Shown piece by piece: positions 32,671 through 35,096 of a stretch of DNA of 64,000 bases (its first letter is position 1; every line of letters starts with the position of its first letter). Location of the stretch: positions 6,382,270 through 6,446,269 of the forward strand of contig JADJBV010000001.1 in assembly GCA_016703535.1 (NCBI GenBank), in the 5' to 3' direction. The DNA is from Deltaproteobacteria bacterium (GTDB taxonomy: Bacteria > Myxococcota > Kuafuiibacteriia > Kuafuiibacteriales > Kuafuiibacteriaceae). The position numbers and the translations under genes were made by a program. The notes below the pieces were generated by a model. The model was not told where the DNA came from, did no database searches, and saw only the letters and a list, made by a program, of their open reading frames with translations.

Positions 32671-33726
32671 CTAAAGCGGACAGGTCGTCCCGCACCGAGA
32701 GCAGCCGGCCGTCTGCTTTCCGTCTACACAGGTTCGGTGTTCTGCTCGCCACTGCACAGCGGCCTCATCGGCCGCCGTCTCGTCTAGATTGTGCAGGTCA
32801 ATAATGTGGGCAGCGACCCGGGCCGCGCGAACCGCCTCCAGCGTGGATTCGAGGCTCGGGATGCCTCCTGTATGCTCCTCGCGCGTCACGGCCGCAAGCA
32901 CGTGGGCTGCTCCGTGAACACCCATCAGAGTGGCGCCGATAGCGGCCGACACATGGTCCTGTCCGTCCGCCGCGTCGGTAGGAATGGGGCCCAAGGGCAT
33001 GACTGGGAAGCCAGCAGGAGCTAGGATCGAAGCCACTCTCAGGATGTCCCGCGGTCGAGCATGACCAGGTGACTCAACAATCACGCTTGTTCCGCTTCGC
33101 ACGAGCTGTGAAGCGAGGTCCAACTGGGCCGCGATCTCTCCTAGTTGCGCTTCATCCAGCGAGTCAAAGATGTTCGCCGAGCGAAAGGACGCCCCGAGGC
33201 TCAGCGTCACGCCCCGGCGAGCTGCCTCCTCTGCCAGCTTCGGCATGATGTCCTGGTAAGCGTTGCCTCCGTCTCCGCGAAGTAGGAGGTCGTTGATGAC
33301 CAATCCGCCCCCTCGGGAAGTCCACGGAACACGTCGCCGACGCGCTAGGCGAACCAGCTCACGAGTCGGGGTCGGATGAATCGTCAGGAGGCCGGCACCT
33401 CGTTCCATCTGCTCGATGGCTCTATTGAGTAAGGCAGAACGATCAATCTGGCCCGATGTCGAGACAGCGGAATACACGGGCAACGTCGCGGCGACAAAGC
33501 CATATGAAACTATGCACTCCAGGAGCGGTTCGTTCGACGCAACAATCGATAGATCGGATACGATATCGGGACCGACTTCCATCTGTGCAAGCGCGTCAAT
33601 TTTTGCTCGCTGGGATCCGAAGTCGCGAATGTGGCTAGAGCCGACCAGGGCCATCACTGACGTTCGAATCCCAGGACCTACCGCGACGCTCGGGAGCGCT
33701 CGCCGCCCTAGCAAGGCAACAGTCAT
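32671..33726 (-). CDS. Short ThiC-family (HMP-P synthase-like) radical enzyme paralog, 351 aa
   Basis: ThiC blocks: VPIYQA-like LPVYSA, TIHaG-like LLTIHPT, SRGG, ESPGH (VIVESPGHARP), LGPIPTDAADGQDHVSAAIGA. C-terminal CSRCGTTC (CX2CX3C). ATGA overlap with the ThsA-like stop at 33723-33726. Confidence 0.7.
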   Translation of the reverse strand: MTVALLGRRALPSVAVGPGIRTSVMALVGSSHIRDFGSQRAKIDALAQMEVGPDIVSDLSIVASNEPLLECIVSYGFVAATLPVYSAVSTSGQIDRSALLNRAIEQMERGAGLLTIHPTPTRELVRLARRRRVPWTSRGGGLVINDLLLRGDGGNAYQDIMPKLAEEAARRGVTLSLGASFRSANIFDSLDEAQLGEIAAQLDLASQLVRSGTSVIVESPGHARPRDILRVASILAPAGFPVMPLGPIPTDAADGQDHVSAAIGATLMGVHGAAHVLAAVTREEHTGGIPSLESTLEAVRAARVAAHIIDLHNLDETAADEAAVQWRAEHRTCVDGKQTAGCSRCGTTCPL

Positions 33727-35096
33727 TTGAGGCTCGCTTCCACGCACCGAACCACGTCGGCAGCGCTGACACGGCCACTTCTCGCCTTTTCTAAGTAGGC
33801 TGGATCGATTTTCTGGAGCAGCCCGGCTACGCCCGGCTCATCGAGTTGCAGCGCGGCCAGACCCTTGCGTTGGATTGGCACAGGAACGATTTGGCACCGA
33901 TGGGCGCGCGCAACCTCCAGTTCCGCGGCCGTGCCCATGCCTCCATCAAACACAACCATCGTCCTGGCGGCGGCAAAGAGGCCTCCACGGTATCGCTTGA
34001 GATCGTCGAGGAGTGACCTGTCGTTTGAAAATGCAGGCCTTATTGCATAAGGATTCGGAAAAATCCTAATGCGCTGACGCAGGTCGGTTTGTCTTCGAAG
34101 GCAAGCATCGCCGAAAGCGTTGACGGCATGGCGGCCAATACCCTCGGACTGGCCGTCCAGAAGCACAATCGCCGGATCGATTTCGGAGAGCTTTGCTCCC
34201 ACCAGTGCCGCAAGGTCAGTCGCACGACGAGCAGCCTTATGCCCACCACTTACGAACACGGCCCGGTCCCGAGCTCGGAGGGCTAGATTGTCGAATACGT
34301 GCTGGATTTCATCGTATCCTTGGACGATCGCACAACGAATTCCAACCCGCATGAGATCCTCGGTCCAGAGTGCCTGGCGCTTCGCGTCTTCAGCACTGCT
34401 GGCTACCTTAAGCAGCATAAAATGTTCGCGAGTCGCGCGTTTGGCCAACCTCCTTGCTTGAACCAGCGCGGTTGAGATGCTGGAATCCCGATAGCCATAG
34501 CCAGCAAACAGGAAAGTTTTGTGGAGCAAGTCGTGCTGGAGGCGCTGCACAAAACTGGGCCGACGAGCCGCAAATTCCTCATAGTCGTCGGTCGTGATGA
34601 TGAGGTCGTTGGGCGAGCTTCGCTCGATGCATCCATGCACCTTCAGTATTTCAAAGTCATCAGCGAGGACATCCTGCGTAAAGTCTTGATCGTCAATCCG
34701 CACGACAACCCTCCGGTGTGCCATCGAGTCCTCAAGAAGACGATCGAAATTTGTGGTCCAGACGGTATCAATCGGAGTGAGCCGCAGGGCGGCGTGGTAG
34801 GAGTTTGGAAGAAGTCCGCGATTTAGCTTCGCTCTAAATGCCGCGACCAGGGGACCACGATTGCCCTTGTCGGCATTTACCAAATGCTGTGCGATCAACG
34901 GTAAGTCGTCGGTCTCCTTCAGGTCCAACCCGATCCGCCTCGCGTGCGGCTTCAATAGACCAAGCCAACTTGGCGCATTCGACTTGGCGGATATCCCGGA
35001 TCCCAAAAAGTACGCGCCCACACCGGCCGCGATTGCCTGAGCCATCCCATCAACCACGTAGGAGAGATCGACTCCAACCGACTTTGGTTCAGCCAT
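33723..35096 (-). CDS. ThsA-like protein: N-terminal SIR2-like (SIR2_2) domain + C-terminal SLOG/LOG-like domain, 457 aa
   Basis: SIR2_2 motifs FLGSGISAKSNAPSWLGLL, TTNFDRLLE, ILKVHGCIER. C-terminus AVFVSGGHKA...VVFDGGMGTAAELEVA (LOG PGGxGTxxE-type motif). ATG 35094-35096 with GAGGGAG upstream. Confidence 0.7.
   Translation of the reverse strand: MAEPKSVGVDLSYVVDGMAQAIAAGVGAYFLGSGISAKSNAPSWLGLLKPHARRIGLDLKETDDLPLIAQHLVNADKGNRGPLVAAFRAKLNRGLLPNSYHAALRLTPIDTVWTTNFDRLLEDSMAHRRVVVRIDDQDFTQDVLADDFEILKVHGCIERSSPNDLIITTDDYEEFAARRPSFVQRLQHDLLHKTFLFAGYGYRDSSISTALVQARRLAKRATREHFMLLKVASSAEDAKRQALWTEDLMRVGIRCAIVQGYDEIQHVFDNLALRARDRAVFVSGGHKAARRATDLAALVGAKLSEIDPAIVLLDGQSEGIGRHAVNAFGDACLRRQTDLRQRIRIFPNPYAIRPAFSNDRSLLDDLKRYRGGLFAAARTMVVFDGGMGTAAELEVARAHRCQIVPVPIQRKGLAALQLDEPGVAGLLQKIDPAYLEKARSGRVSAADVVRCVEASLK

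Follow-up and report, generated by a model that had tools for sequence, protein, structure and literature searches.

The closest described relative of the system considered here is type I Thoeris, whose effector ThsA joins a SIR2 NADase domain to a SLOG sensor domain; according to a survey of December 2025, every characterised Thoeris type depends on TIR-made signals. In a 64,000-nucleotide stretch (the window) of the genome of a Deltaproteobacteria bacterium (assembly GCA_016703535.1, contig JADJBV010000001.1), we analysed a ThsA-like SIR2-SLOG gene that is followed on the same strand by a short gene of the ThiC family. The two genes form a cassette of 2.4 kb that recurs in unrelated bacteria of at least six phyla. 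An earlier inspection of this DNA from its letters alone (the sequence-only reading) had pointed out that the only tightly linked enzyme is a divergent ThiC and not a TIR protein, and this is borne out, with no TIR match genome-wide. Our analysis suggests that a Thoeris-type effector with a non-TIR partner enzyme is new and that its trigger route for NAD-destroying immunity has not been described.

The partner gene brings further enzymes into the comparison. ThiC, the hydroxymethylpyrimidine phosphate (HMP-P) synthase, is a non-canonical radical S-adenosylmethionine (SAM) enzyme, and its reaction is among the most complex radical rearrangements known. BzaF, BzaA and BzaB, the 5-hydroxybenzimidazole synthases of the cobamide lower-ligand pathway, offer a precedent for a ThiC paralog that makes a different heterocycle on the same scaffold. 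Prokaryotic viperins also belong to the radical SAM enzymes and produce chain-terminating nucleotides; they exemplify the recruitment to defence islands of radical-SAM chemistry on a nucleotide-type substrate, a likeness that the ThiC-like protein described here would share. However, viperins have an unrelated fold, belong to an unrelated family of canonical CX3CX2C radical SAM enzymes and act alone as chain-terminator-making effectors, uncoupled from a SLOG-gated NADase.

A recurrent pair of a ThsA-like and a short ThiC-like gene

The features of the pair and its surroundings are collected in Table 1. The ThsA-like gene can start at an ATG at 35132, which gives a protein of 469 amino acids (aa) (P0001), or at an in-frame ATG at 35096, which gives 457 aa (P0122); the latter is the public gene call and was also the end coordinate of the sequence-only reading. 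Read directly, the forward-strand tcat at the junction of the two genes is ATGA on the minus strand, in which the TGA that ends the SIR2-SLOG gene (33725-33723) shares bases with the ATG that opens the ThiC-like gene (33726-33724), as had been stated before. Stoichiometric expression of the pair, which had been derived from this overlap, is no consequence of it; by itself such a stop/start overlap is usual operon anatomy. The feature that rises above chance is the recurrence of the same gene pair across unrelated bacteria. A promoter and terminator scan gave nothing exceeding shuffle expectation, and a tRNA search of the window found none. Sequence of this stretch turned up in no RNA sequencing run; small shares of its words occur in metagenome contigs only. 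Complex prediction for the two proteins (alignments A3 and A1) gave a score of 0.00 in two runs without controls, which is neutral on binding.

Table 1. Features of the gene pair and of its surroundings; coordinates are positions in the window, except in the last row, where each range is preceded by its locus.
Feature	Coordinates	Strand	Basis or remark
ThsA-like SIR2-SLOG gene (P0001)	33723-35132	minus	PADLOC ThsA1, Pfam SIR2_2 and ThsA structures 7uxt/6lhx
SIR2 (NADase) domain of P0001, residues ~26-265	34338-35057	minus	alignments A2/A3
SLOG sensor-like domain of P0001, residues ~285-450	33783-34280	minus	PADLOC ThsA models, sub-cutoff Pfam STALD
ATGA stop/start overlap of ThsA-like and ThiC-like genes	33723-33726	minus	sequence read directly
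Short ThiC-family radical-SAM-like gene, 351 aa (P0002)	32671-33726	minus	Pfam ThiC_Rad_SAM
C-terminal Cys loop of P0002, putative [4Fe-4S] site	32680-32730	minus	C333-x8-C342-x2-C345-x3-C349-P-L
PDC-M19 M19A, contains DUF488	36057-37304	minus	PADLOC candidate defence system, E 7e-100
PDC-M19 M19B	35217-36050	minus	PADLOC candidate defence system, E 1e-108
Methyltransf_34-like gene	30134-31222	plus	overlaps DUF1848 gene
DUF1848 gene	31198-32142	plus	PADLOC RTasDUF1848, 3e-43
463-aa protein, HD then AAA_33 kinase-like domain	26668-28059	minus	weak Cas3-HD-like PADLOC match, 1e-4
Second cassette (~420-aa partner with sister ThiC-like gene)	L016:4608-7089, L018:456-2839, L107:3537-5922, L105:4001-7596		

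Fifteen independent loci were examined, of which 14 are evaluable (L014 has 132 bases of upstream DNA). The sequence-only reading had made its proposal depend on the two genes occurring together elsewhere, and they do: in 14 of the 14 evaluable loci a ThsA-like gene stands directly upstream of the short ThiC-like gene, on the same strand. Besides the window, these loci come from Bradyrhizobium (L003), Paenibacillus (L005), Desulforamulus (L006), Pirellulaceae (L008), Planctomycetota (L009), Ramlibacter (L010), Xaviernesmea (L011), Gemmata (L012), Desulfosporosinus (L013), Chryseobacterium (L015), Myxococcus (L102), Azotobacter (L103) and a metagenome (L104), and the phyla with the pair include Pseudomonadota, Myxococcota, Bacillota, Planctomycetota and Bacteroidota. 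The junctions mostly overlap as well, by ATGA, GTGA, TGATG or longer stretches (L003, L005, L006, L008, L010, L011, L012, L103 and L104). The ThsA-like gene is truncated by the contig end in L008 and broken over three reading frames in L009 and L013, which are from metagenome-assembled genomes. Over the 11 loci in which both genes are intact, the two sets of pairwise protein identities correlate (Mantel r 0.60, a value reached by 1 of 5000 permutations), which is the pattern expected of co-transfer as a unit, and mean identity is 53% for the ThiC-like protein versus 43% for the ThsA-like protein. No neighbour other than the ThsA-like gene is conserved around the ThiC-like gene in the 14 loci; the flanks hold, for example, a type ISP restriction enzyme and resolvases (L003), ribosomal and tRNA-synthetase genes (L006), a STAND NTPase (L102), an integrase (L103) or a relaxase with ParA (L104). 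The linkage of the ThsA-like and ThiC-like genes is well supported.

TIR genes are largely missing from these contexts. The TIR_2 and ThsB_TIR models matched nothing anywhere in the window's 9.76-Mb genome, nor in the genomes of Ramlibacter (G002) and Chryseobacterium (G004); three further genomes (G003, G006 and G007) have TIR matches, only on contigs other than that of the cassette. An adjacent TIR gene is missing from 13 of the 14 loci, whereas the TIR-linked control loci L088 and L089 show one. Azotobacter beijerinckii L103 is the only locus with a TIR gene nearby, and it has a CAP12-PCTIR_TIR-like gene further upstream.

The cassette is accessory, island-borne and horizontally mobile. In the window it lies in an island of about 8 kb with low guanine-plus-cytosine (GC) content (0.56-0.62 versus 0.65-0.72 in the flanks), and it was not found in the 60 relatives searched (19 of the same family and 41 of the same phylum). 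A canonical full-length thiC is present on the other contig of the genome (629 bits with Pfam and 884 bits with NCBIfam NF006763, cutoff 650), and no thi or cob genes were found in any examined flank. No canonical ThiC was matched in the genomes of Ramlibacter sp. AN1133 (G002, L010/L094) and Chryseobacterium kimseyorum (G004, L015/L093), which have the short copy only.

A divergent ThiC family with a rebuilt base pocket

P0002 matches Pfam ThiC_Rad_SAM with an E-value of 1.9e-44 (152.6 bits, model positions 50-369 of 420). Its scores with the NCBIfam ThiC models (153.5, 135.1 and 111 bits) stay below the cutoffs of 410, 460 and 650, and its 118 bits with the BzaB model TIGR04386 compare with a cutoff of 700. 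The protein consists of a (beta/alpha)8 core, two helices and a C-terminal Cys loop; its AlphaFold model (predicted local distance difference test, pLDDT, 92.6) superposes in Foldseek on Arabidopsis thaliana ThiC 4s28 with a template-modelling (TM) score of 0.87 over 342 columns. All the ThiC sequence blocks quoted in the sequence-only reading are present, and its remark that the protein is shorter than HMP-P synthases holds (351 aa versus 419-567 aa in collected ThiC sequences). The missing segments are the N-terminal one (Pfam positions 1-49), some 25-30 residues that precede the cluster loop in ThiC and the helix that follows it there. The C-terminus reads GCSRCGTTCPL, with two residues after the last Cys. 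This CX2CX3C ending had been taken as a departure from ThiC; it is indeed present, but it does not distinguish the protein, and it was rejected as a diagnostic motif because the same spacing occurs in the bona fide ThiC L091 and in BzaB L095, the latter identified by 735 bits against its 700-bit cutoff.

Active-site roles were mapped by alignment from Caulobacter crescentus ThiC (CcThiC), whose numbering is used here (Fenwick et al., 2015), and were tallied over 25 family members, 4 sister sequences, 24 ThiC sequences and 1 BzaB. The phosphate anchors Y277, H313, S333, R334, G335 and R377 are invariant in 25 of 25 family members, and so are E413, L250, the second-metal histidines H417 and H481 (H222 and H285 in P0002) and E480, which holds the SAM ribose in ThiC (Fenwick et al., 2015). 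The three cluster cysteines are likewise invariant (25/25), C342, C345 and C349 of P0002 aligning with C561, C564 and C569 of CcThiC; an extra fourth Cys, C333 in P0002, precedes the motif by 8 residues, again in 25 of 25. The residues around the base are different. In ThiC, N219 contacts a ribose hydroxyl, D374 contacts the imidazole N3, Y440 stacks on the aminoimidazole and M563 packs on the SAM adenine (Fenwick et al., 2015). Leu replaces N219 in all 25 family members (Asn or Ser in ThiC sequences), Ala or Thr replaces D374 (Asp or Asn in ThiC sequences), Met replaces Y440 in all 25 (Tyr in ThiC sequences) and Arg replaces M563, also in all 25. Among the contacts to aminoimidazole ribotide (AIR), namely N219, D374, E413 and Y440, E413 alone is kept. 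A rebuilt base pocket combined with intact residues for radical-SAM chemistry and phosphate binding would be expected of an active enzyme that works on a different phosphorylated substrate.

In a tree of 54 sequences (quick IQ-TREE search, LG+C20+F+G4, with one BzaB reference, no BzaF and a long branch for L019), the 25 ThsA-linked ThiC-like sequences form one clade with a Shimodaira-Hasegawa-like approximate likelihood ratio test (SH-aLRT) support of 99. Its sisters are four other short ThiC-like sequences (L016-L019), and long branches part both groups from a ThiC+BzaB clade (support 100), in which BzaB L095 is nested among ThiC. The sequence-only reading had named placement inside the thiamin or benzimidazole clades as the outcome that would undo its proposal; P0002 falls outside the ThiC+BzaB clade. 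Branching within the family departs from taxonomy, with Ramlibacter beside Azotobacter, and with Gemmata and Paenibacillus in the same group of ten, within which branching is not settled; this is consistent with horizontal transfer. P0002 thus has in common with ThiC the (beta/alpha)8 fold, the cluster Cys, the second-metal His pair, the SAM-binding Glu and Arg and the phosphate anchors, while its family is set apart by truncation, the replaced N219, D374, Y440 and M563, the fourth Cys, a place outside the ThiC clade, scores below the cutoffs and the lack of linkage to thi genes. With BzaB L095 it has the CX2CX3C spacing in common; however, BzaB nests in the ThiC clade and keeps N219, D374, Y440 and M563, neither of which is true of P0002, and P0002 falls far short of the BzaB cutoff and has no cob genes near it.

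More than 100 database relatives of P0002 (about 330-390 aa, 52-65% identity) come from Myxococcus, Pyxidicoccus, Bradyrhizobium, Rhizobium, Azotobacter, Methylicorpusculum, Paenibacillus, Desulforamulus and many metagenomes, and the short form makes up ESM Atlas clusters of 396, 72 and 53 members. All of these relatives are annotated as ThiC. The resulting annotation problem is a practical one, with hundreds of family proteins publicly labelled 'phosphomethylpyrimidine synthase ThiC'; in genomes such as G002 and G004 the label may wrongly imply HMP-P synthesis and thiamin prototrophy. PLSDB plasmids and INPHARED phages contained no family member, only canonical thiC-level matches of at most 30% identity, and PADLOC v2 has no model for the ThiC-like protein.

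A ThsA-like effector with an altered sensor pocket

The sequence-only reading had called the SIR2-SLOG gene a relative of ThsA, and the profile and structure matches agree. P0001 matches the PADLOC ThsA1 (STALD) model PDLC00407 (E 5.5e-66, residues 26-429) and Pfam SIR2_2 (E 1.4e-24), while its 18.9 bits with Pfam STALD lie under the 24-bit gathering score. The nearest solved relatives are the Thoeris effectors SeThsA (7uxt) and BcThsA (6lhx, 8bto), and the clade profile matches the structures 7uxt and 6lhx with an E-value of 1e-73. Homologues of P0001 fall into two groups separated by a sharp gap. The first, at 306 bits or more and 36-52% identity, is the ThiC-linked ThsA clade, many members of which lie on contigs that match in length those with P0002 relatives; the second, canonical ThsA at 122 bits or less and 26-28% identity, has Pfam STALD present. 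Two members of the second group were checked, from Xanthomonas sontii (L088) and Chelatococcus (L089), and both adjoin a ThsB_TIR gene; these loci are ordinary type I Thoeris. In the ThiC-linked clade, one metagenomic protein of 551 aa (P0153) has, in precomputed Pfam matches, an N-terminal dihydrofolate reductase domain (PF00186) before SIR2-STALD, a fusion that could be genuine or a gene-call artefact.

The SIR2 motifs GxGxS, WTTN(F/Y)D and KxHG are invariant in the clade (alignments A2 and A3), and N128 and H166 of P0001, which lie in the latter two, align with the catalytic N112/H152 of BcThsA and N113/H153 of SeThsA. In the SLOG domain, P0001 has S295-G296-G297-H298, G327-Q328-S329-x-G331, N360-P361-Y362, R382 and G397-G398-x-G400-T401-x-x-E404. 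The contacts of BcThsA with 3' cyclic ADP-ribose (3'cADPR) are S290, R371, K388, E403, G289, G399, L326 and Q359, among which K388 binds the diphosphate (Manik et al.); the STALD signature residues are S288, F357, R371 and E403 (Ka et al.). Four pocket residues are kept and clade-invariant, namely G289 (G296 in P0001), R371 (R382), G399 (G400) and E403 (E404), and S288 is kept as Ser or Thr at position 295. The equivalent of S290 is Ser in most clade members and Gly in the window protein. By contrast, K388 is replaced by Met or Ile and F357 by an invariant Asn, and the L326 position is variable; the alignment of Q359 to the clade is unreliable. Three of the four STALD signature residues are therefore kept, with F357 replaced by Asn. 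A 7-residue insert before G399 is missing, which leaves a LOG-like GGxGTxxE motif, and H298, Q328, S329, N360, P361 and Y362 are new invariant residues. Loss of the ligand-pocket residues had been raised beforehand as a possible objection, and the core Gly, Arg and Glu residues prove to be retained. Because the K388, F357 and L326 contacts are lost while the Arg/Glu/Gly core is invariant, the pocket is under strong constraint yet is not the 3'cADPR pocket, and it may bind another phosphorylated ligand.

The comparison with type I Thoeris is therefore one of shared layout and altered parts. Both have the SIR2+SLOG architecture with the catalytic Asn and His kept, solved ThsA proteins are the closest match of the ThsA-like protein, and both are two-gene mobile cassettes in defence-island contexts with the core SLOG ligand residues kept. 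Unlike type I Thoeris, the present cassette has a ThiC-family enzyme as partner, with no TIR protein in the cassette or the genome, and its ThsA-like clade is only 26-28% identical to TIR-linked ThsA, with the K388, F357 and L326 contacts replaced.

A sister subfamily with a different partner

In Scytonema (L016) and Velocimicrobium (L018), the short ThiC-like gene is preceded and overlapped by a gene for a protein of about 420 aa without Pfam match. The two partners are homologous (31% identity, E 5e-55), and an exhaustive HMMER search gave 59 representative clusters. The partner lies upstream of a sister ThiC-like gene in 4 of 4 loci, directly so in 3 of them. In L107 it overlaps a ThiC_Rad_SAM gene, and the pair adjoins a reverse transcriptase (RVT_1) and a SLATT_5 gene; in L105/L106 a thymidylate-kinase-like gene stands between the partner and the ThiC_Rad_SAM gene, with a second radical SAM gene beyond. 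The sister ThiC-like proteins have Thr for D374, Met for Y440, Arg for M563 and the extra Cys, and they have Asn or Ser at position 219. A structure model of the ~420-aa partner (pLDDT 82) had no fold match in the PDB, and its AlphaFold-cluster neighbours are only uncharacterised proteins or DUF2326; a profile comparison with ThsA was negative. The partner passed a hydropathy test for membrane helices, as did a set of soluble controls. The same enzyme superfamily with different non-metabolic partners resembles, by analogy, the exchangeable effectors of signalling defence systems. Two Bacteroidota loci (L017:5923-8269 and L019:5995-8194) have divergent short ThiC-like genes without a ThsA-like gene or the ~420-aa partner; one is followed by Fe-alcohol-dehydrogenase-like and prenyltransferase-like genes, and the other stands after a gene for a 1253-aa protein without family match.

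Proposed mechanism and alternative explanations

The reading that we favour, to which we give somewhat less than an even chance, and which is the most economical, is that the pair aborts infection in a Thoeris-like manner, with the ThiC-like enzyme as the source of a new phosphorylated molecule that the SLOG sensor of the NADase would bind. The two genes would constitute a horizontally mobile two-component conflict module with the layout of type I Thoeris and a different upstream enzyme, and its defence role would most likely be anti-phage. The ThiC-like protein would be an active radical-SAM enzyme, as the cluster Cys, both second-metal His and the SAM-ribose and SAM-carboxylate binders are kept, and it may anchor a phosphorylated, probably phosphoribosyl, substrate at the conserved phosphate site as ThiC does. 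That substrate would be other than AIR, because three base and ribose contacts are replaced. Its phosphorylated product would bind the remodelled SLOG pocket and switch on NAD+ hydrolysis, by which infection would be aborted. We speculate that the trigger may be the appearance of the substrate, or a shift in SAM or reducing power, and not recognition of a phage protein, because the enzyme shows higher conservation than ThsA and lacks a variable domain. A broader version, which we hold more tentatively, is a TIR-independent Thoeris-like branch in which a remodelled ThiC-family enzyme makes a new, non-ADP-ribose messenger (a phosphorylated heterocycle or a rearranged ribotide), and in which this synthase superfamily is coupled to at least two partners, the ThsA-like NADase and the ~420-aa protein.

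Several points weigh against the favoured mechanism. The enzyme is more conserved than its ThsA-like partner, the reverse of Thoeris with its variable sensor ThsB; recognition of variable phage proteins by the enzyme is thus unlikely, and the off-state in uninfected cells is left unexplained. The fourth invariant Cys could fully ligate the cluster, and M563 is replaced by Arg, so that radical-SAM activity is plausible, not assured; this Cys need not abolish SAM cleavage by P0002, because the SAM of ThiC is a ligand of the second metal instead of the unique iron (Fenwick et al., 2015). The pathway could also run in the reverse direction, with the enzyme acting on the SIR2 product. In Azotobacter beijerinckii L103, a TIR_2 gene (3291-4088) lies 1.5 kb upstream of the pair, with an opposite-strand gene between. 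In G002 and G004, which have no canonical ThiC match, a metabolic role is formally possible. The product, the NADase activation and the phage phenotype are all predictions. As to novelty, a literature search found no paper tying ThiC to ThsA, SLOG, SIR2 or phage defence, with the STALD-defining paper of Burroughs et al. (2015) outside its reach, so that an earlier mention is possible.

The high conservation of the enzyme would suit an effector better than a sensor, and an unlikely alternative makes it one, or a part of an effector pathway: a viperin-like enzyme that on infection makes an antiviral analogue from a nucleotide or phosphoribosyl metabolite, or destroys an essential one, while the ThsA-like protein supplies or senses a related molecule derived from NAD. 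One variant has the SIR2 domain producing ADP-ribose or a base-exchanged compound, which the radical enzyme then rearranges. The gene order, ThsA-like then ThiC-like, speaks for this alternative, as do the conserved catalytic apparatus and phosphate site beside a remodelled base pocket, and the row of genes in L105/L106, with its thymidylate-kinase-like and second radical SAM genes, looks like a nucleotide-modification pathway. However, the invariant SLOG pocket requires a ligand, and the neighbourhood of the pair has no other conserved gene that could encode its synthase; the fit of ADP-ribose-sized substrates in the ThiC-like pocket is without support, and the ThsA relatives studied so far are small-molecule-activated effectors, not substrate suppliers (Manik et al.). 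Another alternative sees the ThiC-like protein mainly as a protein partner, a sensor or regulator that would govern the NADase through physical contact with the ThsA-like protein or with a phage component, its catalysis being secondary or lost. Overlapping stop/start coupling is common among co-assembling proteins, and the fourth invariant Cys with the M563 replacement could mean an altered, non-radical use of the cluster; yet the SAM, second-metal and substrate-phosphate residues, invariant in 25 of 25, are hard to explain without catalysis, the protein lacks a variable surface domain and shows higher conservation than its partner, and the invariant SLOG pocket points to a small-molecule ligand. 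We regard control by contact as improbable.

The least likely of the rivals, with a very small chance in our estimate, is that the pair is metabolic and supplies a precursor of thiamin, cobamides or another heterocyclic cofactor by an alternative route. The SIR2-SLOG protein would then transfer phosphoribosyl or ADP-ribosyl groups, or would be a phosphoribohydrolase of the LOG kind. In the SLOG domain of the clade, the LOG-like GGxGTxxE motif together with the invariant Arg could be read in this way, as could the ThiC label of all public annotations and the two genomes with a short copy and no canonical ThiC match; a sirtuin, Salmonella CobB, can replace CobT in the activation of the cobamide lower ligand. 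Against it stand the full-length ThiC already present in the window's genome, the place of the family outside the ThiC/BzaB clade with 153 bits against NCBIfam cutoffs of 410-700, the three replaced AIR contacts and the lack of thi or cob genes in any flank. The distribution is moreover sporadic across phyla, with the cassette not found in 60 relatives; its low-GC island has candidate defence genes and genes of mobile elements next to it, and the SIR2 domain is of the ThsA NADase type.

If the favoured mechanism is right, the pair represents a new immune second-messenger chemistry and a new class of SLOG ligand; SLOG domains occur also in eukaryotic TRPM channels. If the ThiC-family enzyme makes a messenger, it would be a new class of immune signal synthase beside CD-NTases, TIRs, Cas10 and pyrimidine cyclases. 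A ThiC relative with an altered substrate pocket also holds out the prospect of new enzymology and perhaps of a natural nucleotide derivative that is new.

Other genes of the low-GC island

The two PDC-M19 genes lie directly upstream of the ThsA-like gene on the same strand, within the low-GC island, and accompany the cassette in no other locus. On the other side, the overlapping Methyltransf_34-like and DUF1848 genes are convergent with the ThiC-like gene within the island. The sequence-only reading had included them in a proposed test of the pair; they are encoded on the opposite strand and recur with the pair at none of the other loci, for which reason they were rejected as parts of the system and are probably a separate unit. 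The HD-AAA_33 gene lies just outside the low-GC island.

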